NCBI GenBank assembly: GCA_020439945.1
Contig: JAGRPB010000004.1
Span: 10,307 to 74,306 of the forward strand
Source of the DNA: Verrucomicrobiia bacterium
GTDB taxonomy: Bacteria; Verrucomicrobiota; Verrucomicrobiia; Verrucomicrobiales; DEV007
Direction: 5' to 3'
DNA: 64,000 nt
Shown here in pieces: positions 15,153 through 61,915 of the stretch; position 1 is the stretch's first letter, and the number at the start of each line of letters is the position of its first letter. A program made the translations under genes and the position numbers. The notes under the pieces were generated by a model. That model had not been told where the DNA came from. It did no database searches and saw nothing but the letters and a program-made list of their open reading frames with translations.

Positions 15153-15171
15153 GACGGCTGCCAGCTCGTGG

Positions 15172-15615: not shown

Positions 15616-15628
15616 GACTGATCGCGTC

Positions 15629-38483: not shown

Positions 38484-38560
<77 letters not shown>

Positions 38561-42826: not shown

Positions 42827-44602
42827 TCACCGCGATGGCATCCAGGCGCGCCAGCCGCCGTGGGAGGTGATCTCCTCGGCAGATACGGTCGCCCATTCCT
42901 CACAGACGAATCCACTCACTTCACGGCTGTCGGCGAGCGTCACCTTCCCAATTCCCAGCGGCGATCCGATGCCATCCACGAACGTCCCGAAGCTGCTCGC
43001 CGGAACCGACCAGATCTCCACCTCGATCGCGGCACCTCTTGAATCATCGCGAACCAATCCCGGACGCGGCGGGAAATCTTCTGTGGCCGGCAGTGCGAAC
43101 ATCCGATAACACGGCGCGGTTTGAGTGGCTTCCACCAGCCAACCGCCACGAGTCGTCAGTTGATGATTCAGTGGCAATCCGCTGAGATGAGCGCCACAGA
43201 CCACCACTTCGATTCGAGGTTCGTCAGAGTCGATCCGGAGAGTCGGGAACGCATCGCCTTTCGCGTGAAATTTCGCCGCCAACTCGAGCAGGAACGCGTC
43301 GCAAAACGCCGGACCAAACAGGGTTATGCCCCACGGCATACCCTGTTGACTCAGGAACCCCGCCGGCACCGCGGTCGCCGCGTAGTCGAGCAGGTTCATG
43401 AAATTGGTGTAGTAACCGAGATTTGAATTCAAACGAATCGGATCGGCTTCGACTTCGGCAACGGTGTAGGGCTTGCCAAAAGTCGGTGTGAGTATGGCAT
43501 CGACGAAATCCCAAACGTCGTCGGCCCGGCGTTTGAGTTCGCGGAGCCGATACTCGGCCCGGAATGCGGCCACCGCCGTGAGGGTGCGGCCACCTTCGAT
43601 GATTTTTCGCGTCACCGGAAAGACCGCATCGGCCTGGGCATCGAGGAATGGCTCGATCGCCGCCAAGCGCTCCGCCACCCAAGGACCTTCGTAGAGCAGG
43701 AGGGCGGCTTCGAGGAAGGGAGCGAAATCGATTTCAGTGACCTCGCATCCCAGATCGCGAAATCGCTGAATGGATTCCGAAAAGAGCGCCCGGCAATCTT
43801 CGTCGCCGAAAAACTCAAGCTGATCAGGTTTGGGAATTCCAATCTTTGCTTTTGAAACCTGCGGTCCCGGCAATGGCGAACTGATTACGCTTCGGCTATA
43901 CGGATCCGCCGCGTCGAAGCCGGCCATCACATTCAGGACCTCGGCGGTTTCGCTAGTGGTGGCGGCGAAAACTGTGACGCAGTCGAGGGAGCGGCAGGCG
44001 GGAACCACACCGGAACAGCTCACCAGTCCCTTGGTCGGTTTGAGCCCAACCAAATCATTCAGCGATGCCGGGACGCGGCCTGAGCCAGCGGTGTCGGTTC
44101 CCAGCGAAAAGCTCACCAGCCCAGCGCTCACCGCAACCGCCGAACCGGAACTTGATCCACCGGGAATGTAGTCGCCATTGTACGGATTTGTCGGAAATCC
44201 GAAGGGCGAACGCACGCCGACCAGACCGGTGGCGAACTGATCGAGATTCGTTTTCCCGATCGGAATCGCTCCGGCTTCGATCAACTTCCCGACAGCAAAC
44301 GCGGAGCGCTCGGGCACGTAGGCGTATTCGGGGCATCCCGCTGTCGTCGGCACTCCGGCGAGGTCGATGTTGTCTTTGATGGCGAACGGCACGCCCAAAA
44401 GCGGAAGCGAATCAGGATCGAGCGCCTCCATACGTTTCACGTATGTCATCACCTGCTCGACCGACAGGCGTTCGATCCAGATTTTTGGATCTGCGCCATC
44501 ACAAGCTTCCAGGACACGTCCGATCAGTTCTTCCGGCGTGGTCTTTCCCGATCGATAAGCCTCCCGTAACACCGAGAGTGAAAGGTCATCCTTGAGCAAC
44601 AT
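42827..44602 (-). CDS. atzF: Allophanate hydrolase (amidase signature domain plus C-terminal AH domain)
   Basis: 591 aa with amidase signature GGSSSGSAVAVSAGLVSFSLGTDTAGSGRVPA, plus a ~120-aa C-terminal domain. Lies 10 nt downstream of the carboxylase. Confidence 0.9.
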   Translation of the reverse strand: MLLKDDLSLSVLREAYRSGKTTPEELIGRVLEACDGADPKIWIERLSVEQVMTYVKRMEALDPDSLPLLGVPFAIKDNIDLAGVPTTAGCPEYAYVPERSAFAVGKLIEAGAIPIGKTNLDQFATGLVGVRSPFGFPTNPYNGDYIPGGSSSGSAVAVSAGLVSFSLGTDTAGSGRVPASLNDLVGLKPTKGLVSCSGVVPACRSLDCVTVFAATTSETAEVLNVMAGFDAADPYSRSVISSPLPGPQVSKAKIGIPKPDQLEFFGDEDCRALFSESIQRFRDLGCEVTEIDFAPFLEAALLLYEGPWVAERLAAIEPFLDAQADAVFPVTRKIIEGGRTLTAVAAFRAEYRLRELKRRADDVWDFVDAILTPTFGKPYTVAEVEADPIRLNSNLGYYTNFMNLLDYAATAVPAGFLSQQGMPWGITLFGPAFCDAFLLELAAKFHAKGDAFPTLRIDSDEPRIEVVVCGAHLSGLPLNHQLTTRGGWLVEATQTAPCYRMFALPATEDFPPRPGLVRDDSRGAAIEVEIWSVPASSFGTFVDGIGSPLGIGKVTLADSREVSGFVCEEWATVSAEEITSHGGWRAWMPSR

Positions 44603-44612: not shown

Positions 44613-47600
44613 TCAGGAGGGTTCGAGATAGAGCAAAGCCTGCCCCGGGCGTACGGCGGCGCTTTCGGTCACAGTAACTTTCCAGACCGTTCCGGCTCGC
44701 GGGGCGCAGATGGTGAACTCGGTTTTCATCGCCTCGAGAATGGCCACCTTTTCCCCCGCTTCCACGACGTCGCCTTCGGTCTTGAACAGTTTCCAGACGT
44801 TGGCGGCGAGGAAGCTTTCGACAGGCTCCACATGATCCGGGATCGCTTCGTCGCCATCGCCGGCGGCACTTTCGGCGAGTTCCGGGGCCCCCGACATGGC
44901 GACGCCGGCGGCGGCCCAGCGCTCGCGTTCTTCGTCGAAGGCGGCCTGCTGCCGTTGCTTGAAGGACTGGATCGACTCGGAGTTGTCGGCGAGGAATTTC
45001 GCGTAGTCCCCCATCGAGAAGGTGCCCGTCTCGACTTTCGGATTGAAACGTCCCTGGATGAAATCGCGCCGCAGTTGTTTCAGTTCATCGGCGCTGACGG
45101 GATACCAACGAATCTGATCGAAGAAGCGGAGCAACCACGGCTTGCCTTCGCGAAAAGACACCGTTTGCCGATACCGATTCCACATCTGGATGGTGCGGCC
45201 GACAAACTGGTAACCGCCGGGCCCTTCCATCCCGTAGATGCAGAGATAGGCGCCACCGATGCCGACGGCGTTCTCGGGAGTCCAAGTCCGCGCGGGATTG
45301 TATTTCGTGGTGACGAGCCGATGACGCGGATCGATAGGAGTTGCCACCGGTGCGCCCAGATAGACATCGCCCAGACCGAGAACCAGATAGCTGGCGCCAT
45401 AGACGATCTCTTTGACCGCTTCGATGGAGTCGAGGCCGTTGATGCGGCGGATGAACTCGATATTACTGGGACACCACGGCGCATCCGGACGAACCGATTG
45501 CGTGTATTTCGCGATGGCTTCCCGGGTTGAGGGATCGTCCCAGGAAAGAGGCAAGTGAACGATCCGCGAAGGCACCTCCAGCTCTTCCAGAGGGGGCAGC
45601 GCGACTTCGAACGCTTCGATGTGGGCGATGAGATCAGTCTGCGAGATCACGCGGCTGTCGTAGTGAACCTGCAGCGAACGAATTCCCGGCGTGAGATCGA
45701 TGATGCCATCGAGGTTCTCCTCTTTCAGAGCCTGATAGATTACATGAACGCGCAGCCGGAGATCGAGGTCGAGCTTGAGCGGACCGCATTCAACCAGCAG
45801 ATAGCGGTCGCTCGACTGCCGATAGACGACGCGATACTCCCCTTCCCCGTGCTCATGAATGATGGCGGATTCGGGAATCGCGGCGATTGGAGAATCCTGT
45901 TCGTCGCCCGAGAAATCCGCCCCTGCCCATGAGCCGAGTTTCGACTCCCGGTCCGTGTCGAGACGAGTTGCTTCGTCCAGCGATACCGGCAAAAACCGAA
46001 CCGTATCTCCGGCGCGCAACTGCCCCATCTTCCACAGGTCGGCATGGATAATGGTCGCCGGACAGACGAATCCGCCCAGGCTCGGTCCGTCGGGGCCGAG
46101 GATGACGGGCATGTCGCCGGTGAAATCGACTGTTCCAATCCCGTAGGCATTGTCGTGAATGTTGGAGGGATGAAGTCCCGCTTCTCCCCCATCCGAGCGG
46201 GCCCACTCCGGTTTCGGACCGATCAACCGAATGCCGGTCCGGTCCGAGTTGTAGTGAATTTCCCAATCTGTTTGGAAGAACGTTTCGATATCTGCGCCGG
46301 TGAAAAAGTCGGGCGCTCCGTGAGGACCATAGAGCACGCGGATTCTCCACTCGTGGCCATAGGTCGGAGGACTCTTGATCTCACTCGATTCTGAGATGCC
46401 TTCGGAAGCACCGAAGTGAATCACGTCTCCCGGTCGCAGCGCTCGACCGCCGTGACCGCCAAACTGACCGAGAATGAAGGTCGAGCGACTGCCGAGATAC
46501 TCCGGCACGCTCAATCCTCCCGCGACGGCGAGATACGAACGCATACCCTCAGAACTGGCACGCCCGACCACAAGCGTCTGGCCCCGTTTCACGGCGGTTG
46601 CTTTCCAATACGGCACCGCTTCGCCATCGAGCGTGGCATCCATCGGCGCTCCAGTCAGGGCGATGACGGTATCGCGGTTGAAGCGTAGCGTCGGGCCAGC
46701 GAGCGTGATTTCGAATCCGGCGGCGTCCTCGGCATTACCGACGAGACGATTGGCAAGCCGAAACGCCAGGGAATCCATCGGACCCGAGGGCGGCACGCCG
46801 ACGTCCCAGTAACCCAGTCGGGCCGGGTAGTCCTGCACGGTGGTCTGGGCGCCGGGCGCGATGACATCGATGCTGTGGGGCCGGTAATCGAAATCCGACA
46901 GCCAGCGTGTGGTCATCCTGCCGTCGCGGAAAACAGGCGCATCGACGACCTGACGCAGGTATTCGAGATTGGTTTCGATACCGGACACTTCGGTCTCGCC
47001 CAACATCCCGAGCAGCCCTTCGATCGCTTTTTCCCTGGTATCGCCGTTCGCCATCACCTTGGCGAGCAAGGGATCGTAGAAGCCGGTCACCTCGGTCCCG
47101 GCGCTGATCCAGTGGTCGATTCGTCCTGTCTCAGGAAAGTCCACATGCGTCAGAAGTCCCGGCGAAGGCTGGAAATTCTTGTTTCCGTCTTCCGCATAGA
47201 GTCGGACCTCGATGGCGTGGCCTTGGCTGGCAAGCGTCGATGCCTCCGGAAGCGTGAACTCCCCCGCGGCGCAGGTGATCATCCACTCCACCAAGTCAAC
47301 GCCGAAGACCATCTCGGTGACACCGTGCTCAACTTGGAGCCGGGTGTTGACCTCGAGAAAGTAGAACGCTTCGGCATCGACATCATAGAGAAATTCGACC
47401 GTTCCCGCCGAGCGATAGTTGACCGCCTCCGCCAAAGACACAGCTGCCTCGTGGAGTGCTTGACGGGTATCCTCGGAAATCCCCGGGGCCGGTGTTTCCT
47501 CGACCACTTTCTGGTTTCTTCGTTGCGCGGAACAATCGCGTTCACCGAGCGCGAGTACACCGCCTTTGCCGTCGCCGAAAATCTGGACCTCGATGTGCCT

Positions 47601-48215
47601 GGCACGAGCGATGAATTTTTCCAGGAACACGCCGCCCTCGCCGAAATTGGCGGCGCTCAATCGGGTGACCGATTCGAAGGCGTCGGCGAGTTCCGCCGCA
47701 TTTTGGCACACCTGGATACCGATCCCGCCACCGCCAGCCGAGCTTTTCAGCATGACCGGATACCCAATCACCTCGGCCTTCTCTGTGGCCTCTTCGAGCG
47801 TGGCCAACAACGAGGTACCTCGCAGCAACGGCACGTCGCTTTTTTCGGCCAGATCGCGGGCCTCATGCTTGAGACCAAAGGCTCGGATTTGATCCGCGGT
47901 CGGACCGATGAATGCCACTCCGGCGGCTTCACATCGACCGGCGAAAGTCGTGCTTTCACTGAGGAGACCATAACCCGGATGAACCGCCTCGGCTCCGGAC
48001 TCGGCCAGGACTTCCATGAGCCGATTCTGGTTCAGGTAGCTGTCTTTGACCGGCGCCGGTCCCAGGCAATAGGCTTCGTCCGCCAACGCCACATGCGGCG
48101 ATTCGCGATCCGCCTCCGAGTATACCGCCACCGAAGCGACGCCCATCTTGTGGAGCGTGGCCAGGATGCGGCAGGCGATTTCTCCGCGGTTGGCGACGAG
48201 AACTTTGGTAAACAT
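44613..48215 (-). CDS. Biotin-dependent urea carboxylase family enzyme; gene context suggests guanidine carboxylase
   Basis: 1200 aa. N-terminal biotin carboxylase ([16 protein letters not shown]), central KipA/KipI-type domains, and a C-terminal biotinyl motif EAMKTE. Confidence 0.92.
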
Positions 48216-48251: not shown

Positions 48252-48887
48252 TCAGTCCCAGATCAACACCTGCACCGGGGTCGGATTGTAAGCGTTGCAG
48301 GGGTTATTGAGCTGCGGGCAGTTGCTGATCAGGGCGATCACGTCGCGCTCCGCCCGCATTTCCACGTAGCGCCCGGGTGCGGAGATACCGTCCTCGAAGG
48401 TGAGCTTCCCTTCAGGCGTCACCGGCACATTCATGAAAAAGTTGATGTTGCAGGTGATGTCGCGTTTGCCCATGCCGTGGCCCCAGCCGTTCACTCCGTT
48501 GATGAAGCTGTCGCGGCAGGCGTGCATGTGCTCTTTCTCCAGCGCGTAGCGCATGGTGTTACTCTCGCGCGAACAGGCGCCACCGAGGGTGTCGTGTCGC
48601 CCGCAAGTGTCGGCCACGATGGTGAGCAGGGCGTCGCCACCGGTGGACATCAATCGGGTGTCGGTAGTCAGGTAGAGATTTCGCTGTGCCCGAATCGTGT
48701 CGCAGGCGCTGTAGCGATTATCGACGTTGTGAGCGTCGTAAAACAGAGTGTCGGCGGCCTGATTGCCCTCCAGATCGACGATGCGAAAATACTGGCCCGC
48801 CTTGATCTCGTGCATCCAGTGATCGCCGGCGAGAACGGTGAAGTCGTAGATCGCGTCTGCCGGATCGAGTTGGCTTTCGGTTAACAT
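48252..48887 (-). CDS. DUF1989 urea-carboxylase-associated protein (carboxyguanidine deiminase subunit type)
   Basis: 211 aa. Motifs [20 protein letters not shown] and [22 protein letters not shown]. Confidence 0.85.
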
Positions 48888-48931: not shown

Positions 48932-49663
48932 TCAGTCACGAAGCCGGTAGTAGTTCTCGGTATTGAGGAAGGCTCGTTCGTTTTCCGGGCGGGAAAGGCG
49001 GCAGGGATCATCGGCTGCGGCGGGTTCCCCGGCGAAGACTTCGAGTTTTACCGGCTTCGGCGCCCAGGTGGTCGTCGGGTCGAGTGGATGCGGGCAGGTG
49101 TTGAGCACCACCAGCGTCTTCATTTCGAAGCGGAGATCGATCGAGTCGCCCGCCTTCACGTTTTCCGGGGAGAGCGAGAGGTTGCCCGCTTCATCGGGCA
49201 CGACCTGGCTGAACCAGTTCAAGTTCGGCACCAGGTCCTTCTGACCGAGCCCCCATTTCGCCAGTTCGATGAGGAAGTTTTCCTTTCCGTTCCGGACGAA
49301 GTCGTTCCGGCACGCTTGGTAGTTCATCGCTTCACCGTATTGCTCGAGAACCTGAGCCTCATCGGTGCATCCGCAAACGGTGTCGTGCCAACCCCGGGTG
49401 TCGTTGACGATGGAACAGAAAATCCGGCCCATGTCGGAGTGCACGCAGAGCGGCGAGGTCAGAAAGAAGACGTGCTGCCCCTTGAGCGTGTCGGGCATGT
49501 TGTAACGCTCAACCATTTGGTCAGCGTTGTAGAGAAGCATGGAGACATTGGCGCCGCCTTCGAGATCGGTCAGTCGCAGCGTTTTGCCACGGCCGATGAC
49601 CTGCGACCACATGCCGCCGCCGTGAATTTCCGTTTCGTAGATGGGTGTCTCGGATGAACTCAT
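48932..49663 (-). CDS. DUF1989 urea-carboxylase-associated protein (second carboxyguanidine deiminase subunit type)
   Basis: 243 aa. Motifs [20 protein letters not shown] and [16 protein letters not shown]. Confidence 0.85.
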
Positions 49664-49691
49664 GATTAAAATTCTAGGGTCCCCTCAGCTC

Positions 49692-50141
49692 TCAACGTCG
49701 GGACTCGTTTGGAAACGGATGGATCGGCGGCAGGAGCATCGACATCATCACGAGGCGGCCTGACTTCACGCCCTTACAGGTGATCAGCTTGTCAGCGATC
49801 ATTTTCAGTCGCCTTGCCGGTCCCTGGACGAGGATGACTTCCATGGTGTGATTCTCCTCCAGCAGTATGTGCTGCGAGCTGATGACCTCGTTGATGTACT
49901 CGCGCTCGATCGAGGCCAACTGCTGCAACAAGCCGGGCTTCGACTCGTCGTAGAACAGCGTGATGGTTCCCGCCATCATCTCGGTTCCTCGCTGCTTGTA
50001 GTGCTCGATGAGGCTCGCGTTGATCATCTCGGCCACCGCCTGGGAACGATTAGTGAAACCGCGCGCCTTCACGAGATTGTCCAACTCGCGATAGACTCCG
50101 GCCGGAAGTGATACGCTGATTCTTTTGACGCCTTTTTCCAC
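49692..50141 (-). CDS. NikR-family ribbon-helix-helix transcriptional regulator (metal site apparently non-canonical)
   Basis: GTG start. The N-terminus RISVSLPAGVYRELDNLVKARGFTNRSQAV aligns with E. coli NikR [30 protein letters not shown]. An ACT-like C-domain is present. It lies 28 nt upstream of the DUF1989 gene. Confidence 0.8.
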   Translation of the reverse strand: MEKGVKRISVSLPAGVYRELDNLVKARGFTNRSQAVAEMINASLIEHYKQRGTEMMAGTITLFYDESKPGLLQQLASIEREYINEVISSQHILLEENHTMEVILVQGPARRLKMIADKLITCKGVKSGRLVMMSMLLPPIHPFPNESRR

Positions 50142-50197
50142 GGGGATGAGTGGTTCCTTGGTTTGCGTCTTTCACATAGCAGCGGCCATGCCGCCGC

Positions 50198-50225
50198 GTA
50201 ATACTTTTTTCTAAAATCGTATTAC
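50198..50225. promoter_or_regulatory. 28-bp dyad GTAATAC-N14-GTATTAC, candidate NikR-type operator
   Basis: Perfect 7-bp inverted arms at 50198-50204 and 50219-50225 with an AT-rich spacer, 57-84 nt upstream of the regulator's GTG. Same overall span as the E. coli nik operator GTATGA-N16-TCATAC. Confidence 0.45.
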
Positions 50226-50241
50226 TCACTGCGACAACTCC

Positions 50242-51081
50242 TCACATTCCTTTTCCAAACCACTCGCGAAGCTGGCGACCCATCCACGCATTCACCTCCC
50301 AGAGATCGGCGACGGGTTTCCGGGTGTAGGGCTCCAGGTGAAGGTAGCCGTCGGTCCCGAACTCGGGCGTCATGGTGGTGATTTCACACTCGCTGTCCTC
50401 TCGCAGATTCCAGATGACCTCCCACCACGCTCGATGGCTGGCGACTGCCTCGGCGTATTCCGGAGCACGCGGATCGGGCACCTGCGGCCCCTGGTCGTAG
50501 CCGACCCGCGCATGCACGTGGCGGCATCGGCTGGCAATGAAAGCGAGCATCACCAAATCGTCGTTCATCACCAATCTCTCAGTCACACAACACCAGTGAC
50601 TGAAGTCGCAGGTGATCGACAGATCGGGTACCGCTTCGAGAATTTCCCGTGTCACCCAGGGATGAAACATGGAGCGACTCCGATGCGTCTCGACGGAGAT
50701 GGGAATGCCATACTCGCTTTCCAAATCCAGGATGCGCCGGTGAAACTCGATCTGCATTTCGAGATTCCAGGCGTCCAATCCGGCCTGCGTGTTCACGAAT
50801 CGGGGCTTCAGCGGCAGACTCCTTTCGATTCCCTCCCGAAGATCCTCGAGGTGATCCCCTGGGTGCGCCGTCGGATCGGGAACATAATTGCCGCCGGTCG
50901 TCACTTCGGCGATCAGAGACAGACCCGACTCTTTGAGTAGAGCACCGAAGCGTTTCCTTTTGCCGGGATCCGCCGGGACCGGACCTTCGATCCCGTCAAA
51001 TCCCGCCTCGATTGCTTGGCTGATGGCGTCTTCGATCGAACCGACGTGTCCCCACAGCGGTTTGTAGATTTCCAGTTTCAT
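50242..51081 (-). CDS. Xylose-isomerase-like TIM-barrel protein (sugar phosphate isomerase/epimerase family)
   Basis: 279 aa with the family pattern GFDGIE...HRSRSMFH...CDFSHW. Confidence 0.78.
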   Translation of the reverse strand: MKLEIYKPLWGHVGSIEDAISQAIEAGFDGIEGPVPADPGKRKRFGALLKESGLSLIAEVTTGGNYVPDPTAHPGDHLEDLREGIERSLPLKPRFVNTQAGLDAWNLEMQIEFHRRILDLESEYGIPISVETHRSRSMFHPWVTREILEAVPDLSITCDFSHWCCVTERLVMNDDLVMLAFIASRCRHVHARVGYDQGPQVPDPRAPEYAEAVASHRAWWEVIWNLREDSECEITTMTPEFGTDGYLHLEPYTRKPVADLWEVNAWMGRQLREWFGKGM

Positions 51082-51087
51082 GGGGGT

Positions 51088-51765
51088 TCAATGGGCGCAT
51101 CGACACTCTGTTACAACTCGAAAGCCTAGATTGTCCCGTCGCGTCTCCGGTCGCAAGGCGTCGCGCCAACTGCTTCTAAGCATGCGCGGCAAATAGTCCC
51201 AGGCTCCCCCGCGCACCACGCGGCGGGTGTCGTCCCCGACCGCCTCGTCCGACCAATTCGACCGCCAGTTGTCGGCGGTCCATTCGCTGACATTCCCGTG
51301 CATGTCGTGGAGTCCGAATGGGTTGGCGTCGTAGCAGCCCACCGGCAGCAATTGGCCGGGTCCGACTCGGCGGCCATCTTCGGAGTAAAGAAAGTTCGCC
51401 TGAGCGGTTTCGATCATCATGCCGGTATGAAACGGAGTCTCCGTGCCACCACGGCATGCATACTCCCATTCCGATTCCGTCGGTAGCCGCCAGATTTTTC
51501 CGGACTTCTCGGTAAGCCATTCGCAATAGCCCACCGCATCGAACCAGGAGACTCGCGTGACCGGCAGTTCCGGATTGCAGTCGCCCCGGCCATTCTGCTT
51601 CCACGCCTGCCAGTCTTCCACGGTGATCGGACAGATCGACATGCGAAACGGTTGATCGATCACGATTTCACCTCGCGGCAACTCGGTCGCGTTGACGAAT
51701 TTGTCGTCCGGTCCCCCGCCCCGAACGCTGCGTCCGGCGGGTATCTCGATGCAGGCCGGAATCAT
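51088..51765 (-). CDS. Formylglycine-generating-enzyme (SUMF1/FGE) fold protein, cytoplasmic
   Basis: Motifs WRLPTESEWEYACRGGT, GLHDMHGNVSEWTAD and RVVRGGAW. No signal peptide. 4-bp overlap with the upstream gene. Confidence 0.85.
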   Translation of the reverse strand: MIPACIEIPAGRSVRGGGPDDKFVNATELPRGEIVIDQPFRMSICPITVEDWQAWKQNGRGDCNPELPVTRVSWFDAVGYCEWLTEKSGKIWRLPTESEWEYACRGGTETPFHTGMMIETAQANFLYSEDGRRVGPGQLLPVGCYDANPFGLHDMHGNVSEWTADNWRSNWSDEAVGDDTRRVVRGGAWDYLPRMLRSSWRDALRPETRRDNLGFRVVTECRCAH

Positions 51766-52655
51766 GCCTTGGCTCCTTTCGCGTCGAAATCAATTTCCCG
51801 GCGGACCTCTGGATAGCTCCGCACCCAGTCCGCAATTTGCGACCCTGTGGCGATCCAGGCATCGTCCGTCTCCATGATCCCGCTGACGAGGCGCTCGAGC
51901 AGCTGGACCCGCGATGGGCGGCCGCTCAGCCAGGGGTGCAGGGTCAGCACGAAGCAGCAGCCATAGTCGCGCATGGCCTCGAACTCGCGCCACCAGAGAC
52001 GGAAGACCTTGTCGCAATCCTCCGGAATGAAACCCCAGGCAGGATCGGCGTTGAAGGCGAACTGCTCCCAATCTTCCAGCATCCACTGCCCAGGGATTTC
52101 CACCAGCCCATTCTCGTGCTGGAACGGGGCGTCGTCGTTCATCATGCTGGCGTTGTAGGAAAAGCCATACTTCACCAACAGATCGGTCGTGCCCGGGTTG
52201 ATCTCGAACCAGGGCGCCCGGTATCCAATGGGTTTTCTTCCGAGTTGAGCTTCAAAGATCCCGAGACTTTTCACGAGCACGGCTTCCTCTTCCTCGGGTG
52301 AAAGCGTGGCCAGCTTTTCGTGCAGATGTCCGTGCGCCCCAATCTCGTGGCCCGCTGCTGCGACCGCCTCGGCCATGCGCGGGTGATTCTCCACGATCCA
52401 GGTCGGAATGAAAAACGTCGCTGGGACTTCGAGATGATCGAGCAGTCCCAACAACCTGGGCACCCCAACGCGGGGACCGTAGGCGCATTGGGACATCGTG
52501 GTGACCCGGTTTTTCAACTCAAGATCCTCGGATAGCGCGGTGGTTTCGCCATCGACATCGAAGCAAAGCATCACCGCGCAGCGCTTCCCTTCCGGCCAGA
52601 GAAACCTCGGCTCGGGCAGATAGGGACGAAAGGGCGTGAAACGGTTGAGATCCAT
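51762..52655 (-). CDS. Polysaccharide-deacetylase-fold hydrolase (PuuE-allantoinase-like family)
   Basis: Start at the ATG at 52655 (MDLNRF...). Motifs CFDVDGE, ATFFIP and GHEIGAHGHLHE. Confidence 0.8.
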   Translation of the reverse strand: MDLNRFTPFRPYLPEPRFLWPEGKRCAVMLCFDVDGETTALSEDLELKNRVTTMSQCAYGPRVGVPRLLGLLDHLEVPATFFIPTWIVENHPRMAEAVAAAGHEIGAHGHLHEKLATLSPEEEEAVLVKSLGIFEAQLGRKPIGYRAPWFEINPGTTDLLVKYGFSYNASMMNDDAPFQHENGLVEIPGQWMLEDWEQFAFNADPAWGFIPEDCDKVFRLWWREFEAMRDYGCCFVLTLHPWLSGRPSRVQLLERLVSGIMETDDAWIATGSQIADWVRSYPEVRREIDFDAKGAKA

Positions 52656-52671
52656 TTTCGGAAAAATGCGT

Positions 52672-53445
52672 TCAGTCGGTCCAGGAACCACCCGCCACGT
52701 TCGCGGGCGCGACGGTGTCGTATCGGGCCCAGCCGGCCATGATGCCGCCATCGACCGGGAGGACGGCTCCGGTGACGTAGGAGGCGTCATCCGAAGCAAG
52801 AAAGTGAAAGGCGGCAGCGATCTCTTCAGGTTTCGCGAGCCTACCCAGCGGCGTGCGCTCTTCCATAAAAGGGATCTCCGGATTGTCCGGTATCTCCATC
52901 ACCGCCGGGGTGAGGACGGTGCCGGGGCAGACGCAGTTCACGGTGATGCCACGCGGCGCCAACTCCATGGCGGCGACCTTGGTCAGGTGAACGATGGCCG
53001 CTTTCGACGTTCCATAGACCGAAGCTCCGGGAAGTCCCAGAACTCCCGAATAGGAAGCCGTATTGACGATCCGCCCGCCGCGTTCCATCAGGCGAGCGGC
53101 ATGCTTGATGCCATAAGCCACGCCATTCACGTTCACGGCAAAGGTCCGCTCCATCAGGCTCGGCGTGAGATCGTCGAAACCGACTCCGAGCGGCTGGATG
53201 GCGGCGTTGTTGACGAGAATGTCGAGGCGACCGGATTCGGCGTAAACCTGCTTCAGGGCAGCCTCGACACCGGCCTCGTCGGAGACATCCACCTCGATCC
53301 CCGAGGCCCCCTCGGGCAAGTCGCCGGGACATCGGTCGAGCACCGTTACCGATGCCCCGGCGTTGAGATACCTTTCCACGATGGCACGCCCGATTCCCGA
53401 TCCGCCGCCAGTGACGGCCGCCGTTTTTCGAGCCAGGCTGAACAT
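52672..53445 (-). CDS. Short-chain dehydrogenase/reductase (SDR)
   Basis: Cofactor motif TGGGSGIGRA and catalytic YGTSKAA. Confidence 0.9.
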   Translation of the reverse strand: MFSLARKTAAVTGGGSGIGRAIVERYLNAGASVTVLDRCPGDLPEGASGIEVDVSDEAGVEAALKQVYAESGRLDILVNNAAIQPLGVGFDDLTPSLMERTFAVNVNGVAYGIKHAARLMERGGRIVNTASYSGVLGLPGASVYGTSKAAIVHLTKVAAMELAPRGITVNCVCPGTVLTPAVMEIPDNPEIPFMEERTPLGRLAKPEEIAAAFHFLASDDASYVTGAVLPVDGGIMAGWARYDTVAPANVAGGSWTD

Positions 53446-53466
53446 CGCGGGAAACCTGTGCGGTGA

Positions 53467-54855
53467 TCAGGCAGGACTGCCGATGAATTCCAGATCCGGT
53501 CGCTGGGAAGCCGCCGGTTCGCGATCCAACGTGGGCCAGGTACCGCGCGAACGAGCCGCGAGATAGCGCTGGATCATCCAGATCGGCATTTCCAGGTGAC
53601 TAAGCCTTCCTCGCTGATAGCCCGACGAGTAGTAGCCGCGCTGGACCGCCATGCAGACTTCCATGTCCTCCAAGTGGAACGACACCGCTTGGCCGATTCC
53701 CTTCTCCAGCATGGCGTCGAAGTCCGGATGTTTCACTGACGATTTCGGCACCAGCATGGTGGTCGTCAGCTTGATCCGGTCCGGTCCCAGCGGTTGAGTG
53801 CGATACCAGATGGCGCAATCCGCCGTGACGAGGAACTTGAACATGGGGAAGCCGAGAAACAGCCCCCACTCGAAGCGGTCTTCGCCGGTCACGTCGGGGA
53901 TCGGCGGGAAAGTATCCCACTGTTCCCCGCGACCCTCCATGGCCGCGATCTCATCGCGAATCGCCGGTTTCAGCGGGAGGTGGCACTTGATGTAGTGCGC
54001 CTTTTCCTGCTCGGTCCAGGTGTCCTTCGCCGGCATCATCGGCTGCAGCGTCTTGCTGTGCGCACCGGCGTGGTGATAGGATTCCATGAAGTTCTCGGTC
54101 AGGACTTTCCAGTTGAACGGACAATCCCATTCGCGAGCCATGACCAGTTCCATGTCGGCGAGATTCCACCGTTCGAGGTGCTTGCCGAGGCCTTCATACT
54201 GCTCGGCGACGGACTTGGGCGCATCGCCGTCGAGATTGACGAAGATGAACCCATTCCACACCTCGCTGCGGTAGGTCTTGAGCCCCCACTCGTCGCGATT
54301 GAAACCGCGAGCCTCCTGCATTTCGGCGCAGGCTTTCAGTTTGCCGTCCAGTTCGAAGGTCCACGAGTGGTAGGGACAGAGCAGCAGCCGGGTGTGACCG
54401 CAGTCCGCCTTGCCGTCCCGCGCCTCGGCGGGATGATGGCCATCGTGACCGAACCCGGGAGGCATGATGTCCATGCCACGATGCGGACAGACGCGTGAAT
54501 GAATCTGGATATCGCCGCTCTTGTCGCGAATCACCAGAAGCGGTTCGCCGAGCAGATCGACATTCATGAAATCGCCGATCTCGGGAATCTGCGACACGTG
54601 CGCCAGGCAGAGCCATTCCTTGCGAAAGACATTCTCGACTTCCCAGTCAAAGAACTCCTGCGAGGTGTAGGCCTGGGCCGGGAGCGTGATGCTATCGACG
54701 AACGGCAGATCGGCCGCCCGCTGGATTTCCGCGAGAATGTCATCGACCGACATCTCGGGAAGCGCGCTCCGAGTGCCGGAGCGGTGGGAGAATTGGAGCG
54801 GATCCGTCGGGGCCGAACAGGCCTTGCGGATCTCGCCTTCCGTGACTTTAACCAT
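53467..54855 (-). CDS. Rieske [2Fe-2S] non-heme-iron oxygenase, alpha subunit, with an enlarged Rieske loop
   Basis: Start at the ATG at 54855. Cluster ligands are CPHRG ... CPYHSW. The C-terminal catalytic domain has FMESYHHAGAH. Confidence 0.85.
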   Translation of the reverse strand: MVKVTEGEIRKACSAPTDPLQFSHRSGTRSALPEMSVDDILAEIQRAADLPFVDSITLPAQAYTSQEFFDWEVENVFRKEWLCLAHVSQIPEIGDFMNVDLLGEPLLVIRDKSGDIQIHSRVCPHRGMDIMPPGFGHDGHHPAEARDGKADCGHTRLLLCPYHSWTFELDGKLKACAEMQEARGFNRDEWGLKTYRSEVWNGFIFVNLDGDAPKSVAEQYEGLGKHLERWNLADMELVMAREWDCPFNWKVLTENFMESYHHAGAHSKTLQPMMPAKDTWTEQEKAHYIKCHLPLKPAIRDEIAAMEGRGEQWDTFPPIPDVTGEDRFEWGLFLGFPMFKFLVTADCAIWYRTQPLGPDRIKLTTTMLVPKSSVKHPDFDAMLEKGIGQAVSFHLEDMEVCMAVQRGYYSSGYQRGRLSHLEMPIWMIQRYLAARSRGTWPTLDREPAASQRPDLEFIGSPA

Positions 54856-55106
54856 GATTTTGTGAAGTAAAGCTTGAAAGATGAAGACTGTTTGTTGACG
54901 AGCGCGGCACGATTTTCGCCCGCGATCGAAAGAGAAAGGGAGAGATCGCTCGCGCTCAGCAGCCCAGAAAGACGAAGCTGCAGAGAGTGATGCCCAAGGC
55001 GCGCAATGCCTCCCGGCCATCACTGGCCGTCGCCTTGCGTGGAGATCCCTTTTTCATCTTCATTTCCAGAAATTCACGAAACCTTCCATCGCCCAATCAC
55101 GCGCCG

Positions 55107-56318
55107 TCACTTTCCGTAGCCTGACTCTGCCAGTGATTTCATCGGACCGAAGGCGATGCCTGCCTCGGGCGGGTGATTCTCTTTGCAGACTCCGAACTTC
55201 ACCCACCAATCGTTGGTGAGTTTCCAGTGATCCTTGATCTGGCCGTTTTTACCGACCGGCGGTTCCCCTCCCGTCACGCCCATGAAAGCGGATGATTCCG
55301 GCCAACCAAACACGTAGAGTCCCCCGTCCTTCGGTCCGCCATCGGCGCCAATCACGGCTTCGACATCCTTCACGTCGAACTGAATGGCCTTGGCAATGAT
55401 CTCGTTGGCTTCGGCAGTATTCGCTTTCCAGTAGGCCACGGCATCGAAATAGGCTTTCATCACTTTCGCCGCCAGTTCCGGTTTTCCATCGAGGAACGAT
55501 CCGCTCATGTACATCCCGTCGGCGAGCAAACCGGTCTCCTGATAATAGGCATCCTTGGAAGTCGATGCCACCTTGGCGCCTTCCAAGGTTTCCAGCACCT
55601 GCTGACCGAAGGGCTCCCAGAATTCCCCGCCCTGCACCTTGCCACTGACCATGGCGGCCACGGCGTCGTCCATAATGACGTTCACGTAGGAAACCTCATC
55701 GAATTTCACGCCGTTCTGTTCGAGAAATATCCCCATGTAAATCTGGGTCAATCCACCTTCCAGGACGGCAACCGATTTTCCTTTCAAGTCGGCACCGCCC
55801 TCGATGCCGGGCCCGAGCAGGATCTTGTCGGTCCCATAGGAAGCATTCGTGTAGCTCACGAGTTTGACCGGTACGCCTTCCTCGGCGGCGATGGGACCGT
55901 ATTCGACGGTGCTAGAAGTGACGTCCAACTGCCCCGCGCTCATGAGCCCGAAGCTTTCATAGGGATCTTCGATGATCTTGATATCGAGATCGAACCCATC
56001 CGTCAGTCCTTTTTCCTTCGCCACAAACCAGAAGCCGTAGCCGGGCCAGGAAAAGAGCGAAACACTCACGGTTTCAGTTTCTTCCTTCGGCGCCTCGGCG
56101 GGTTTCGACTCGGGTTCCGGTGTCGATTCAGCCTCGGGCGCAGGAGCCTCGGGCTTCGGTTCCTCCATTGGCTCAGGAGCAGCCACTTCAGCGGGCGCCT
56201 CAGGCTCAGCTTCAGGAGGCGTTCCCGAATCCGAACACGACGCTACTGAAAACAGGATGGCCAGTGAGAGACCAGCAAGAATTCTGGCAGACAGAAATAA
56301 CTGTCGAGTAAGTTTCAT
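55107..56318 (-). CDS. ABC transporter substrate-binding lipoprotein (NMT1/THI5, NitT/TauT family)
   Basis: Lipobox FSVASCS, a ~60-aa Pro/Glu/Ala-rich linker, then an NMT1-like binding domain. Confidence 0.82.
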   Translation of the reverse strand: MKLTRQLFLSARILAGLSLAILFSVASCSDSGTPPEAEPEAPAEVAAPEPMEEPKPEAPAPEAESTPEPESKPAEAPKEETETVSVSLFSWPGYGFWFVAKEKGLTDGFDLDIKIIEDPYESFGLMSAGQLDVTSSTVEYGPIAAEEGVPVKLVSYTNASYGTDKILLGPGIEGGADLKGKSVAVLEGGLTQIYMGIFLEQNGVKFDEVSYVNVIMDDAVAAMVSGKVQGGEFWEPFGQQVLETLEGAKVASTSKDAYYQETGLLADGMYMSGSFLDGKPELAAKVMKAYFDAVAYWKANTAEANEIIAKAIQFDVKDVEAVIGADGGPKDGGLYVFGWPESSAFMGVTGGEPPVGKNGQIKDHWKLTNDWWVKFGVCKENHPPEAGIAFGPMKSLAESGYGK

Positions 56319-56465
56319 CGAAGCAAATCAGGGGAAAATGGGGGCTTCGTTGAGTCCCTCTTCTGAAGCTTAAGACATGCCACTCCCCCTTGCTTCCCAT
56401 CTCAGGGGATTACCATTCCCCACCTGTGGTAATACCCGTAAACAGTTCGGGTATGAGCTGATTTG

Positions 56466-58145
56466 CTATTTCTGTTCCGGCCGCGATTTGGACCATTTCA
56501 GTTTCAACGGCATCGGAGCACCCTGGCTCCAAGTCCCTTCCATGGTCTTTCCGTCGATCTCGGCTTCGTAGCTTCCGTGAACGGTTTCAATCTTCAGTTC
56601 CAGTTGCCGTCCCTCGATTTTCAATTGATCCACTGAGAGCGCTCCGGGCATTTGGGTGGGGCTGTAGAGCCACGCCTCTCCGGCGTCTGCGACCGATTCG
56701 ATCTGGAGAATGACGAACAGGCCGCCTTTTCCCCCGATCATGCCTGACCAGAATCCGTTGATTGTCGATATGTCTCCATCGATCCGCTGTTTCAGGAACT
56801 CCGAAAGCTTGGGTGGAAGCTGCTCTGCGCGTTTCAAACTCAACGGCAGGGTGACGCCTTGTTCGAACTCCCCTGCCAGCAAGTCATCGGCAAACTTCCC
56901 GGTAAATTTGGCTCTGATGCCGGGGAATTCGGCCGTCAGCGTTGATCCATCGAAGGTAGCCGAGGTCGACGGTATCCCCTGCAAGGCTTGATCGAGGCTG
57001 TGAAGGACAACCTGGCCACTCTCCGATATCCGCAGGAATTGTCGCAACTCCACGCCGTTGGCATTCAAAGTGCCTGACCAGAATCCCGAGATCTTTTTGA
57101 AATCTCCTTCGACCTTTGTGCTCTGGGGAGGCTCAGCGCCATTGGTCAGCATGATCTCCGCAGTCCGGTTCTCCGGAGAAATCTTCAATTCGCTGCGAAA
57201 TCCGCCGGTTCCCCCGTTGTGCCAATAGCCCTTGTCACCATGGAACCACGCAAGGCCCATGTCATTCCTCGTCTCCCTCATGGCGAGATCCATGGCCGCA
57301 CGCAACTCGGTAGGCGTCGATTCATTCCAATGCGCAGTCGCAAATTTGGCCATGTCGGCGGCGGAAGAAACAATCGCGCCCGCGCCACAGAGCGCATCGA
57401 TGTGCCAGTGCGAGGTTTCTCTGCCTTCCGAATGACCGGTCGCAAATCGGCCTGCTGACTTCTTAGGCAAATCGCCCTTCGCTCGTTGCACAAAAGTCGA
57501 ATCCATTTCGAGGGGAGCGAGAATCGTTTTCGTCAGAAGCGCCTCATACGGCATTCCGGAAATGCGCTCAAGAATATGACCCAGCAATCCTACGCCGAGG
57601 TTCGAATAACTTTGCTTTCCCCTTTCTTCGAAGTCGGTTTCTTGAAAATTTTTCAGATACTCATGCAGATCATCCACGGAGTAGTTCGCGTAGGGATCTC
57701 CCGGATCCAGATCTTCGCTTTCGAGATTGCCGGGAAGTCTTGGTAATCCCGAGGTATGGGTCGCCAAATCAAGGAGCGTTACGGAAGCGAGTGGAGAATC
57801 CTTCGGCAAAACCGAATCCGGCAGGTGTTTTGCAATCGGATCATCGAGCGAAGCCTTCCCCCGTTGGACCTGATCCGCGAGCAGGATTCCGGTGAACACT
57901 TTCGTGATTGAACCAATCTCGAAAAGGGTATTCTCGTCCACCAGATCGCGATCTTTACCAAGTCTCCCCGCAGCAGCAAAAGTGGTCTCATCTCCCTCGA
58001 GTAGAGCCATCGCGACCCCTTCGTCGGGCTGCAGTTTCCCCTCCTGATAGCGCTTGGCTCTTTCCGTAAGCTCGTTCTCGTTCGCTTGAGCAGAGCAAGC
58101 CAGGAACAGGGCGACAAGCACTTGACCGATGAGCGGTTTCATCAT
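56466..58145 (-). CDS. Secreted beta-lactamase-fold serine hydrolase with two C-terminal repeat domains
   Basis: Start at ATGATG at 58145 (MMKPLIGQVLVALFLACSAQA). S-x-x-K motif FEIGSITKVF. The C-terminal ~190 aa hold two similar GFWSG... modules. Confidence 0.82.
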   Translation of the reverse strand: MMKPLIGQVLVALFLACSAQANENELTERAKRYQEGKLQPDEGVAMALLEGDETTFAAAGRLGKDRDLVDENTLFEIGSITKVFTGILLADQVQRGKASLDDPIAKHLPDSVLPKDSPLASVTLLDLATHTSGLPRLPGNLESEDLDPGDPYANYSVDDLHEYLKNFQETDFEERGKQSYSNLGVGLLGHILERISGMPYEALLTKTILAPLEMDSTFVQRAKGDLPKKSAGRFATGHSEGRETSHWHIDALCGAGAIVSSAADMAKFATAHWNESTPTELRAAMDLAMRETRNDMGLAWFHGDKGYWHNGGTGGFRSELKISPENRTAEIMLTNGAEPPQSTKVEGDFKKISGFWSGTLNANGVELRQFLRISESGQVVLHSLDQALQGIPSTSATFDGSTLTAEFPGIRAKFTGKFADDLLAGEFEQGVTLPLSLKRAEQLPPKLSEFLKQRIDGDISTINGFWSGMIGGKGGLFVILQIESVADAGEAWLYSPTQMPGALSVDQLKIEGRQLELKIETVHGSYEAEIDGKTMEGTWSQGAPMPLKLKWSKSRPEQK

Positions 58146-58237
58146 GGGATTGGTGATACTTTCTCCCGGTTTTGATCCCGAAAACAGGGAATAGCGAGCT
58201 CTTTTTCCGGTCGAACTGAATTGGTAGGAACTGCCGG

Positions 58238-59056
58238 TCATTTCCTTCCGTCACGAGCATACGGAAAACATCCCCAGCGAACGCCGCGAAGAATGGCGTC
58301 GGAAACCAGGCCGAGGACGCCGATGACGAGGATACCCGCCATGATCTCGTCAACGCGCACGAGACGCTTGGCGCGCATCATCATCGCGCCGATGCCGTCG
58401 GTGGCCGCGACGATTTCTGCAATGACAAGGTAGGTCCAACTGACCGCCAGCATTTGCCGAATGGTGTCCACATAAGTAGGAAGGGCCGAGCGAAAGACGA
58501 CCTTCAACAGGGCCTGACGACGATTGGCGCCCAGAGTTTGGGCCGATTCCACGAGATCTCGCGAGACAGCTCGGGTGTTGTCCATCAGCAAAGTGACGAG
58601 GAACCAGATCACTCCGAGAAACAACAGGGCCAGCTTCTGCATTTCTCCGGTGCCCAACCACATCAGCAAAAGAGGGACAAAAGACGGAGCCGGCAGATAG
58701 CGAAACGGCGAAATCAGCGGGTTCAATAGGTTCTCAGGAAAGGCGAACGCCCCCATCAAAAGCCCGAGCGGCAGCGCCACCACCACGGCCGCACCGAAAC
58801 TCAGAAGAATCCGGCGCAAGCTCACAAGCACATCCGCGCCGAATCCACGCTCACCAAAAAGTTCCGCCATCGCCCGCAGCACTTCCAGGGGCGACGGCAG
58901 AAGTCGAGGATTTGCCCAGCCACTGACCGACAGCAGGTGCCACCCAAGCAGGAAACTTCCCCAGGCGAGAAGACCGAGACCGAGTTTCCCTTTCCAGCCA
59001 ATGGGCTCGAAAAAGCGCCAACCAGGAATCAGGCGATGACGGGAAGGCGGAGTCAT
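58238..59056 (-). CDS. ABC transporter permease (NitT/TauT family)
   Basis: Start at the ATG at 59056. Six TM helices and an EAA-loop VESAQTLGANRRQALLKVVFRSALP. Confidence 0.85.
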   Translation of the reverse strand: MTPPSRHRLIPGWRFFEPIGWKGKLGLGLLAWGSFLLGWHLLSVSGWANPRLLPSPLEVLRAMAELFGERGFGADVLVSLRRILLSFGAAVVVALPLGLLMGAFAFPENLLNPLISPFRYLPAPSFVPLLLMWLGTGEMQKLALLFLGVIWFLVTLLMDNTRAVSRDLVESAQTLGANRRQALLKVVFRSALPTYVDTIRQMLAVSWTYLVIAEIVAATDGIGAMMMRAKRLVRVDEIMAGILVIGVLGLVSDAILRGVRWGCFPYARDGRK

Positions 59057-59073
59057 CGGTGTCAAAAAATCGC

Positions 59074-59643
59074 TCACTCGGGCTTCGACCAAGCCAACTG
59101 CCTCACCGCCGGATCGAGCGGCGTGTGGGCGATTCCGTTCGCGTAGTTGCTGATCAACTTCGTCGCGAGGCCGAGTACAATTTCCAAACCCTGCTCCGGT
59201 CCGTATCCCGCAGCGAGGAAGGCTTTCCATGACGCCTCGGGCGGGTGCCCGCGATGGGCGATCAGCTCACGAGTGTACACCCGGAGTGCTTCAAGTTTTT
59301 CGTCGGGAATTTCCGTTCCCTCTCGCAGCGCCGCGATCGCCTCGGCGGTCATGCCGGCCTTTTGCGCCAACAGGGTGTGCCAGGGCACGCAATAGGTGCA
59401 GTTGTTTTCAAAGTTGGCGGTCAAATAGACGACTTGGCGCTCGATCGGTGTCAGCGAGGTCTGATCAAACAGGGTCCAAAGCCGGACGTAACCCTCTAGG
59501 GTCGGCGGCGACGAGGCCAGAACCCTTTCCAGGTTCGGAATCATCCCGAAGTCCGCCGCCACTTCCTCCAACAGAGGCTGCGACGCCTCCGGAGCGGAAG
59601 CGAGATCGTGAAGCGGAAATTGTTCGGGATCGAAGCCAGCCAT
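59074..59643 (-). CDS. Carboxymuconolactone decarboxylase / AhpD-like family protein
   Basis: 189 aa with the AhpD-type motif NCTYCVPWH (CxxC...H). Confidence 0.8.
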   Translation of the reverse strand: MAGFDPEQFPLHDLASAPEASQPLLEEVAADFGMIPNLERVLASSPPTLEGYVRLWTLFDQTSLTPIERQVVYLTANFENNCTYCVPWHTLLAQKAGMTAEAIAALREGTEIPDEKLEALRVYTRELIAHRGHPPEASWKAFLAAGYGPEQGLEIVLGLATKLISNYANGIAHTPLDPAVRQLAWSKPE

Positions 59644-59646
59644 GAA

Positions 59647-61068: not shown

Positions 61069-61093
61069 GGTTTCGGGTAGGTAGAGTGAAAGT

Positions 61094-61915
61094 TCAGAGA
61101 ACCGGCATCCGCGACGACTCCAGCCATTCGGAGGGCGGCAGCGGAGGTTCTTCGGTCAAAGCGACCCGGATTTTCTCCGAGAGTGCGACGACCATCTTGG
61201 AAAAGAGCCAGGCCCCCTGCTCGGCGGTCCCCTCGCTCGGTTTGCCGGTGATCCCATTGAGACTGGTCTGCGATACGGGATGCGAGAAAACGGTACCGTC
61301 AGTGCGATCCGGATCGTCTTCGACGCGACTCATGTCGACGGTATCGGGCGCCAGATGAAGCATCAAATCGGTCTCGGCGCGGTTGGCGTGCAGATCTTCG
61401 GCATCCTCGAAGAAGTAATCCCGAATCGCCGGAGACAGGAGGAAGCTGTTGATCATGCCGATCTGGAATTTACCCAAATGGCGAAGCCTCAGCTGATCGA
61501 TGGCGACGCGAAGCACGGCGTCATTTCCGAAGTGGGAGTTCACGATGAGAAGCCGCTCCCACCCGGTCGCGACCATCCAATCGACGAGATCGAGGATGGA
61601 TTGAATGAAGGTGTCGTGACGCAATGAAAACGTCCCCGGCCATTTGCCCGTGTGGCCGGCGGAGACGGTGTAGGTCATCGTCGGCAGCAACGGCACGCCC
61701 GTCGCGGCGGAAGTAGCTTCCACGAGATGAGTAGCGATCACCGAGTCGGTATTTACCGGCAGGTGCGGCCCGTGTTGTTCGGTGGCGCCTGTCGGTAGCA
61801 GCAGCATTCTCATGCCGCTTTCCTGCAACTCGGCGATTTCCTTCCACGAAAGCCGATCGAGAGGCAGCGGCGAATTCCCATCGTTGGGCATGTCCGGTAA
61901 CGGGATAAAGCTCAC
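61094..61915 (-). CDS. Creatininase-family amidohydrolase
   Basis: Motif [24 protein letters not shown] start at 61915 overlaps the upstream stop (GTGA); the ATG at 61891 is the alternative. Confidence 0.85.

Follow-up and report, generated by a model that had tools for sequence, protein, structure and literature searches.

Introduction

Guanidine degradation proceeds through a guanidine carboxylase, a carboxyguanidine deiminase composed of two homologous DUF1989 chains (CgdAB) and an allophanate hydrolase, and the operons of the carboxylase are often under the control of guanidine riboswitches. The route is a nickel-free alternative to the nickel-dependent guanidinase, and in enterobacteria the importer operon is itself controlled by a guanidine-I riboswitch (2025 review). 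In enterobacterial and Vreelandella clusters, guanidine-I and guanidine-II riboswitches occur side by side. Besides transporters and enzymes, riboswitches are the only known receptors of guanidine, and guanidine-binding transcription factors are anticipated (2025 review). Here we describe a candidate for such a factor in a Verrucomicrobiia bacterium (Verrucomicrobiales, DEV007; assembly GCA_020439945.1). In a stretch of 64,000 nucleotides of contig JAGRPB010000004.1 (positions 10,307 to 74,306), hereafter called the window, to which all coordinates refer, the gene for a NikR-like ribbon-helix-helix (RHH) regulator (49692-50141, minus strand) heads an operon for the carboxylase route and is preceded by a predicted operator, a 28-bp dyad at 50198-50225.

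The guanidine-I riboswitch (ykkC, RF00442) has the same targets as those predicted for the regulator, namely the DUF1989 pair, the carboxylase, the allophanate hydrolase and an NMT1/uca-type importer, and it likewise stands at the operon's head. However, the riboswitch is an RNA sensor on the nascent transcript, whereas we propose a protein-operator pair acting at initiation, and the riboswitch is proven to bind guanidine, which for the regulator is a proposal. By fold, the closest described systems are the NikR proteins. Escherichia coli NikR needs Ni(II) at H76', H87, H89 and C95 for DNA binding and represses nickel import, with nikR at the end of the nik operon; our regulator is without the site, has a predicted guanidine regulon and is encoded at the head of its operon. 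Helicobacter pylori NikR has the same fold and regulates urease genes, a precedent for NikR-family control of urea-type metabolism, but unlike the regulator it is nickel-dependent, with the full HHHC ligand set, a pleiotropic regulon and a different operator. The closest solved relative is NikR of Pyrococcus horikoshii (2bj1, 2bj3 and 2bj7; NF003381 type), with a gapless alignment over residues 7-134. The RHH and beta-alpha-beta-beta-alpha-beta architecture and the R-x-S-x-S strand are common to both proteins, whereas the regulator has R80, L93 and T99 at ligand positions, carries an extra LLPPIH tail and adjoins a guanidine carboxylase operon instead of genes for nickel transport or nickel enzymes.

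NikR has been called the sole metal-regulated RHH protein (PMC7055735), and a 2026 preprint on a 'more complete functional landscape' of the NikR family treats this landscape as essentially complete and nickel-only. In the literature that we searched there was no description linking NikR/CopG-type regulators to urea or guanidine carboxylase operons. We consider it the best explanation of our data, with a probability of roughly 0.55, that the regulator is a NikR-fold RHH protein without the square-planar nickel site which acts as a local repressor of the guanidine carboxylase pathway and answers to an effector other than nickel.

A NikR-family protein without the nickel ligands

The regulator is a protein of 149 aa translated from a GTG start. 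Its open reading frame matches Pfam NikR_C with 4.6e-24, residues 57-132 covering positions 1-76 of the 77 in the profile, and its N-terminus matches Pfam RHH_1 (7.4e-5). Among the NikR equivalog models of NCBIfam, the protein clears the cutoff of NF003381 by about 7 bits (111.9 against 105) and stays below those of TIGR02793 (63.7 against 175), NF002815 (71.5 against 83), NF002169 and NF001884. The top sequence match in the PDB is P. horikoshii NikR (2bj1, 3.4e-31). The beta-strand R7-S9-S11 lies opposite R3-T5-T7 of E. coli NikR, so the R-x-[ST]-x-[ST] feature is present. Two AlphaFold2 (AF2) monomer models, built from 24 and 79 sequences with mean predicted local distance difference test (pLDDT) values of 81.9 and 85.3, show a pair of RHH helices and, after them, a beta-alpha-beta-beta-alpha-beta domain, and the C-terminal tail (LLPPIH at residues 136-141) was unplaced or unstructured in both. 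Foldseek matched the regulator model to NikR structures only, with the C-terminal domain superposing on nickel-binding domains at template modelling (TM) scores of 0.91-0.94 and root-mean-square deviations of 0.8-1.5 Å. Fold, domain order, DNA-reading strand and operator geometry (see below) all place the regulator in the NikR family. A preliminary description of this locus, made from the sequence alone, had read the product as a NikR-type RHH N-terminus joined to an ACT-like C-terminal domain, which the Pfam, NCBIfam, PDB and Foldseek results all bear out. By homology, the protein probably forms a NikR-like tetramer.

The nickel ligands of E. coli NikR are H76', H87, H89 and C95 (PMC7055735). 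In HMMER alignments with NikR of E. coli, P. horikoshii and H. pylori, gap-free across the metal-site region and in agreement with MAFFT, R80, H91, L93 and T99 of the regulator stand opposite H76, H87, H89 and C95. Three of the four ligands are thus replaced and H91 is kept, as a by-eye alignment had already suggested. Moreover, C122 is the sole cysteine of the regulator, the only histidines in the C-terminal core (57-132) are H91 and H98, and H141 is in the tail; therefore no gapped alignment can rebuild the four ligands, and none of those that we made restored them. A word-indexed search gave 895 homologues of the regulator at E<=1e-5, and among the best 120 of these a cysteine never occurs at the C95 column, the dominant pattern being R-H-L-[T/V/I]. 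The regulator is very probably not a canonical nickel sensor, and its lost ligands and predicted regulon set it apart from the nickel-responsive NikRs.

Positions 93 and 99, formerly those of H89 and C95, appear to change together among the homologues, Leu with Thr, Val or Ile, and Gln or Met with Arg or Lys. From the sequences, this appears to be a matter of packing, in which the two side chains would still touch in a collapsed metal site, and not of ligand contact. We also considered the four former nickel positions as a new ligand site and dropped the idea, as they vary freely among orthologues with the same regulon.

Public records (PGAP, JGI) name genes of this type 'nickel-responsive transcriptional regulator NikR', including the homologues P0005, P0006, P0043, P0070 and P0113. 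The label arises because the NF003381 cutoff is cleared. Given the absent ligands, 'nickel-responsive' is probably a systematic misannotation.

A distinct clade beside guanidine carboxylase genes

An exhaustive HMMER search of representatives at 50% identity gave 1151 NikR-family clusters, of which the top 150 were analysed. A degenerate site together with the C-terminal extension [IL][LIM]PP[LIV]H was found in 58 full-length proteins, and 50 proteins without the tail were canonical, all 50 of them with HHHC. In a neighbour-joining tree computed from the core only, with the tail excluded, a single split takes 50 of the 52 tail-bearing proteins and 20 other degenerate ones, while all 50 canonical proteins fall outside it. 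The regulator belongs to a large monophyletic branch of NikR without the nickel site, which is apparently undescribed. Members occur in at least 590 species in a scan of one genome per species, mostly in Verrucomicrobiota and also in Kiritimatiellia and in Alpha-, Beta- and Gammaproteobacteria. Outside this clade, further NikR clusters are without HHHC: P0223, P0226 and P0247 have QQYC, P0237 FGYY, P0221 QHQS, P0246 HLRC and P0195 EHQC. The NikR family may hold still other sensors that do not respond to nickel.

Within the clade, the former ligand positions read RHLT, RHQR, HHHT, RRLV, RQMN, HVHS, YNNT, SHFS and others. Conserved residues specific to the clade are E85 (81%), Q106 (91%) and L112 (95%), along with I87 and the PP of the tail (100% by definition). 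The free evolution of the former nickel site could mean that the regulator is a ligand-independent autoregulator, in which the former sensor domain is a tetramerisation scaffold, expression is buffered and the real control lies elsewhere. Arc, Mnt, CopG and many other RHH proteins work without an effector, and we count this in favour of such a scaffold. Nevertheless we regard it as very unlikely: residues outside the old site are conserved, the conserved extra tail argues for a function beyond oligomerisation, and a catabolic operon that costs ATP is expected to be conditional.

The genomic context of the clade is that of one pathway. In the window, the regulator gene is followed on the same strand by two DUF1989 genes, the carboxylase gene and the allophanate hydrolase gene, with gaps of 28, 44, 36 and 10 nt, the first of them at 49664-49691; the preliminary description had given the same strand and the same 28-nt distance, and the coordinates agree. 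DUF1989 paralogue 1 (48932-49663, minus strand) is of the UAAP1 type (Pfam DUF1989 2.7e-54; TIGR03425 326.7 bits against a cutoff of 206) and paralogue 2 (48252-48887, minus strand) of the UAAP2 type (Pfam DUF1989 9.9e-67; TIGR03424 332.5 against 284.7), and they are presumed to be the two subunits of CgdAB. The biotin-dependent urea/guanidine carboxylase (44613-48215, minus strand) has 1200 aa and 1849.5 bits on TIGR02712 against a cutoff of 1304. The last gene of the operon encodes an allophanate hydrolase of 591 aa with Amidase and AH_C domains (42827-44602, minus strand; NF006043 813.8 bits, TIGR02713 759.5 bits, both over their cutoffs).

The arrangement is widely kept. In 65 of 80 genome loci of 20 kb, a DUF1989 gene on the same strand comes directly after the regulator gene, at a median distance of 28 nt; these counts, like the co-variation counts below, include related genomes and are not phylogenetically independent, though several phyla are represented and identities reach down to 32%. 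All four downstream genes are present in 48 of the 65 direct cases. In six further loci DUF1989 is elsewhere in the 20 kb, in two the contig end is too near, and the remaining seven have no DUF1989 gene but carry companion genes for an ABC (ATP-binding cassette) transporter, a glutamine-synthetase-like or a creatininase-family protein. Distant members of the clade, with 32-57% identity, adjoin DUF1989, carboxylase-hydrolase genes or an NMT1-type ABC transporter in seven of seven cases. The two highest-scoring canonical HHHC proteins, with 41-42% identity to the regulator, are encoded directly upstream of CbiM/CbiQ/ABC nickel/cobalt transporters. The nickel ligands therefore track a nickel neighbourhood and their loss tracks the carboxylase neighbourhood. 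Genes for nickel transport or nickel enzymes were found neither in the window nor in the neighbourhoods inspected.

These observations bear on the question of whether a rebuilt site (for instance H91, H98, C122 and H141, or three histidines and the tail histidine in HHHT) could bind nickel or another metal, so that the regulator would repress the nickel-free carboxylase route while a nickel-dependent guanidinase or urease can work. Descent from NikR, the retained H91, the occurrence of HHHT variants, the nickel-free nature of the carboxylase route next to the nickel-dependent guanidinase, and the near invariance of H98, C122 and H141 within the close subfamily would fit such a metal sensor. 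Across the clade, however, no set of three or more His or Cys is conserved (H91 57%, H98 33%, C122 36%, H141 67%), and members with RRLV, RQMN and YNNT keep the gene neighbourhood, those with RRLV and YNNT also the operator. The missing cysteine at the C95 column, the absence of nickel genes nearby and the placement of the canonical relatives at CbiMQO speak against metal sensing as well, and we consider it quite unlikely. The preliminary description had left two options for the signal, a non-nickel ligand or nickel scarcity. The first is favoured by our results and the second disfavoured, given the RRLV, RQMN and YNNT orthologues and the lack of a clade-wide His/Cys set.

A conserved operator that co-varies with the regulator

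The dyad GTAATAC-N14-GTATTAC (50198-50225) spans 28 bp and lies 57-84 nt upstream of the GTG, exactly as first read from the sequence. It is an S-type variant of GTAWKA-N16-TMWTAC and the sole match in the 64 kb, even at two mismatches, with 0.03 expected by chance. It recurs upstream of the regulator gene in two forms, GTATTAC-N14-GTAATAC and GTATGA-N16-TCATAC, the latter being the E. coli nik consensus. A symmetry score of at least 12 was reached in 38 of 80 loci, compared with 4 of 1600 shuffles, and with at most one mismatch GTAWKA-N16-TMWTAC has 89 sites in 92 loci (1.36 Mb) against 17 in shuffled sequence. In most of the 92 loci the dyads precede the regulator gene or the first gene of the operon.

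The form of the dyad follows the adjacent protein. Where residue 9 of the regulator is Thr, the half-site is GTATGA in 50 of 52 cases, and where it is Ser, the half-site is GTA[T/A]TA in 88 of 96. E. coli NikR, with Thr5 at the equivalent of residue 9, has the operator GTATGA-N16-TCATAC. At least two beta-strand contexts, RVTVSM and RVTISL/RITISL, occur among the Thr9 proteins and may point to separate lineages. This co-variation is the strongest single argument that the adjacent regulator reads the dyad, and such a reading, predicted from the sequences, would make the dyad the operator that the preliminary description took it for: it is conserved across loci and changes with the DNA-reading residue.

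The comparison with E. coli extends to geometry and position. The E. coli nik operator is a 28-bp inverted repeat with a 16-bp spacer (14 bp in the S-type), and many clade members have exactly GTATGA-N16-TCATAC, often GTATGACGAAT... as in E. coli. There the operator GTATGACGAATACTTAAAATCGTCATAC lies 37 nt upstream of the nikA ATG in 5426 of 5426 complete E. coli genomes; likewise, only some tens of nucleotides separate the dyad of the clade from the first start codon downstream, and in the clade, as in E. coli, a strand of the Arg/Thr/Thr type would read the half-site. From the 3' end of the dyad to the Arg7 codon downstream, the median distance is 63 nt (range 20-97). Since Arg7 usually has 5-12 residues before it, the start codon generally follows the dyad at about 30-45 nt, in some loci at less than 10 nt.

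T-type sites in several loci, for example L025, L030, L046 and L049, share their first 11 bases with the E. coli operator, and the dyad could on this account be the target of another protein, such as the canonical NikR of the host. We hold this to be extremely unlikely, since the half-site co-varies with residue 9 of the adjacent regulator across lineages and the dyad follows the regulator's operon wherever its first gene lies. Where the regulator gene is internal to the operon, the site is found before the first gene, which encodes a substrate-binding protein (L087, L088, L092, L062, L078 and L054). Several verrucomicrobial loci have a second site before an ABC importer operon (L057, L047, L046, L018, L026, L077, L009 and L017). 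The best NCBIfam match of the dyad-led substrate-binding proteins is TIGR03427 ('urea carboxylase region'), at about 140-150 bits and below the cutoff. With sites before importer and catabolic genes, the predicted regulon therefore consists of importer and catabolic genes. We are highly confident that the regulator is dedicated to this regulon and binds this dyad.

Between the operator and the GTG, immediately after the operator, there is a GC-rich hairpin, GCGGCGG-CATGG-CCGCTGC, with a 7-bp stem (50179-50197, minus strand). A comparable sequence was noted in L001, the closest relative, and nowhere else. The transcript may carry the hairpin as a stem-loop at its 5' end.

Guanidine riboswitches in the related loci

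The carboxylase route in the window had been described beforehand as the nickel-free alternative to urease. That it is nickel-free stands, while its counterpart is the guanidinase as much as urease, as the DUF1989-linked route is now understood as guanidine degradation. From the CgdAB-type pair and the guanidine-I riboswitches before orthologous genes, we infer that the carboxylase of this operon prefers guanidine to urea and that the pathway is guanidine degradation.

At the gathering score, no Rfam family matches the window except one tRNA (38484-38557, plus strand, 67.2 bits), and in the leader (49500-50400) Rfam gave nothing relevant at E<=10. In seven verrucomicrobial loci (143 kb) there was no Rfam match at all. 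Guanidine-I aptamers with 82-86 bits, against a gathering score of 63, do lie directly upstream of orthologous DUF1989 genes in L031, L054 and L072. A fuzzy motif scan of all loci (1.3 Mb) found guanidine-I only in these three and in L062; all four are proteobacterial and carry the regulator. The preliminary description had proposed that a NikR-fold protein replaced the riboswitch. For this verrucomicrobial lineage, in which neither the leader, nor the window, nor the seven relatives have a riboswitch, the proposal holds, but it is not a strict either/or, as the four proteobacterial loci have both.

In L031, L054 and L072 the regulator gene closes an ABC importer operon, which in some cases also contains glutamine-synthetase-like and creatininase-family genes, and the adjacent DUF1989-carboxylase genes are under their own guanidine-I riboswitch, which makes two different sensors per cluster. 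In some Proteobacteria, the riboswitch is predicted to control the catabolic genes and the dyad the importer operon.

Two sensors in one cluster would fit two non-redundant signals. The regulator might then follow the logic of NikR and MetJ, with a signal of nitrogen sufficiency or a product (ammonium, glutamine or a downstream metabolite) as co-repressor that promotes operator binding, so that importer and catabolic genes are off at nitrogen plenty and substrate specificity comes from other elements, such as the riboswitches. MetJ is an RHH repressor set by an organic co-repressor, S-adenosylmethionine (SAM), and not by a metal; it is without the ACT-like C-terminal domain, is not homologous outside the RHH part, and its effector binds the RHH dimer. 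Characterised NikRs, too, bind DNA upon ligand, the regulon is one of nitrogen scavenging that includes a glutamine-synthetase-like enzyme, and E30 and D34 of the potassium site of E. coli NikR correspond to Q34 and E38 of the regulator. On the other hand, a global nitrogen regulator is not likely to adjoin one pathway strictly in at least 590 species or to have a single operator in 64 kb, and the co-occurrence of guanidine-I and guanidine-II in enterobacteria and Vreelandella is a precedent for two guanidine sensors per cluster. A co-repressor of this kind is unlikely in our view.

Proposed mode of action

We propose that, in the predicted tetramer, two RHH dimers would contact the half-sites of the dyad, which are two helical turns apart. 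The dyad occupies what would be a core promoter or 5' untranslated region position, as at E. coli nikA, and not the position of an upstream activator. Its closeness to the start codon suggests a repressor, and the place of the regulator gene as first in the operon suggests negative autoregulation: the bound regulator would shut off the operon along with its own synthesis. A small molecule of the pathway, which could be guanidine, an alkylguanidine or an intermediate, would relieve the repression. In the verrucomicrobial lineage, this protein-operator pair would stand where many Proteobacteria have a guanidine-I riboswitch.

Strict co-localisation with one pathway in hundreds of species argues for a signal specific to that pathway. 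In some Proteobacteria, moreover, the riboswitch would act on the catabolic genes and the dyad on the importer operon, which in enterobacteria has a guanidine-I riboswitch of its own. On both grounds, guanidine or a compound close to it is the most economical choice. As effector we tentatively name guanidine or a guanidino compound or intermediate closely akin to it, with slightly less than even odds. Somewhat more tentatively, the clade could comprise the first known protein transcription factors that sense guanidine or alkylguanidine and control importer and carboxylase pathway, as a protein counterpart of the guanidine riboswitches. In that case the square-planar nickel site of the sensor domain would have given way to a site for an organic cation, in which E85, Q106, E101, Y64 and the PPxH tail may take part.

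Several points weigh against local repression relieved by a pathway compound. The co-occurrence of the regulator and guanidine-I riboswitches in the four proteobacterial loci could mean that the protein senses something other than guanidine. No sigma-70-like promoter was seen around the dyad, and promoter and terminator scans of dyad and operon were at background. A second operator, for the genes upstream of the dyad (see below), was not found in the window at up to two mismatches. The polarity as a repressor is argued from the distance to the start codon and from the analogy with nik. In NikR the allostery has the opposite sense, with ligand promoting DNA binding, and an inducer would need a reversed sign. 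The former nickel positions are unconserved in the clade, and a new ligand site must lie elsewhere, with E85, Q106, L112 and the PPxH tail as candidates. Finally, the case is one of comparative and structural inference throughout.

Neighbouring genes

Upstream of the operator lies a co-conserved accessory block of 11 genes (50242-63159, minus strand), which recurs beside the regulator in many loci. It encodes an AP_endonuc_2 TIM barrel, a formylglycine-generating enzyme (FGE)-sulfatase-like protein, a PuuE-like polysaccharide deacetylase, a short-chain dehydrogenase/reductase (SDR), a GbcA-like Rieske oxygenase, an NMT1 substrate-binding protein, a beta-lactamase-family protein, a permease, a type-III glutamine-synthetase-like protein, a creatininase-family protein and an ABC ATPase. 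The block is probably part of the same cluster for the utilisation of nitrogen or guanidino compounds, and its enzymes may yield guanidine from substituted guanidines or creatinine-type compounds.

In L062, a Sulfuriferula metagenome-assembled genome, a guanidine-I motif (18206-18312) leads a stretch (15024-18312, minus strand) with genes for an NMT1 substrate-binding protein, a homologue of the TIM-barrel protein (37% identity to that of the window) and a di-iron oxygenase of the fatty-acid-desaturase family. This arrangement ties the TIM-barrel protein to guanidine metabolism. By analogy with MgdH/MgdL, it also hints at a demethylation system of oxygenase plus lyase.

Implications

The regulator is a strong candidate for the first switch of the guanidine pathway that is a protein and not an RNA. 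The clade to which it belongs offers a concrete candidate for a guanidine-responsive factor, whose operator is defined, whose regulon is predicted and whose carriers include candidates for cultivation, namely Rubritalea marina DSM 17716, Haloferula sargassicola NBRC 104335 and Luteolibacter marinus NBU1238. If it is true that the protein senses guanidine, it would be a useful biosensor part, and the correspondence between Ser9 or Thr9 and the operator provides a ready specificity switch for the engineering of RHH proteins. The NikR label probably misleads surveys of metal homeostasis and of the nitrogen cycle in Verrucomicrobiota. For the family as a whole, a NikR branch that is free of the nickel site and tied to nitrogen catabolism alters the view of NikR as a uniform nickel sensor.

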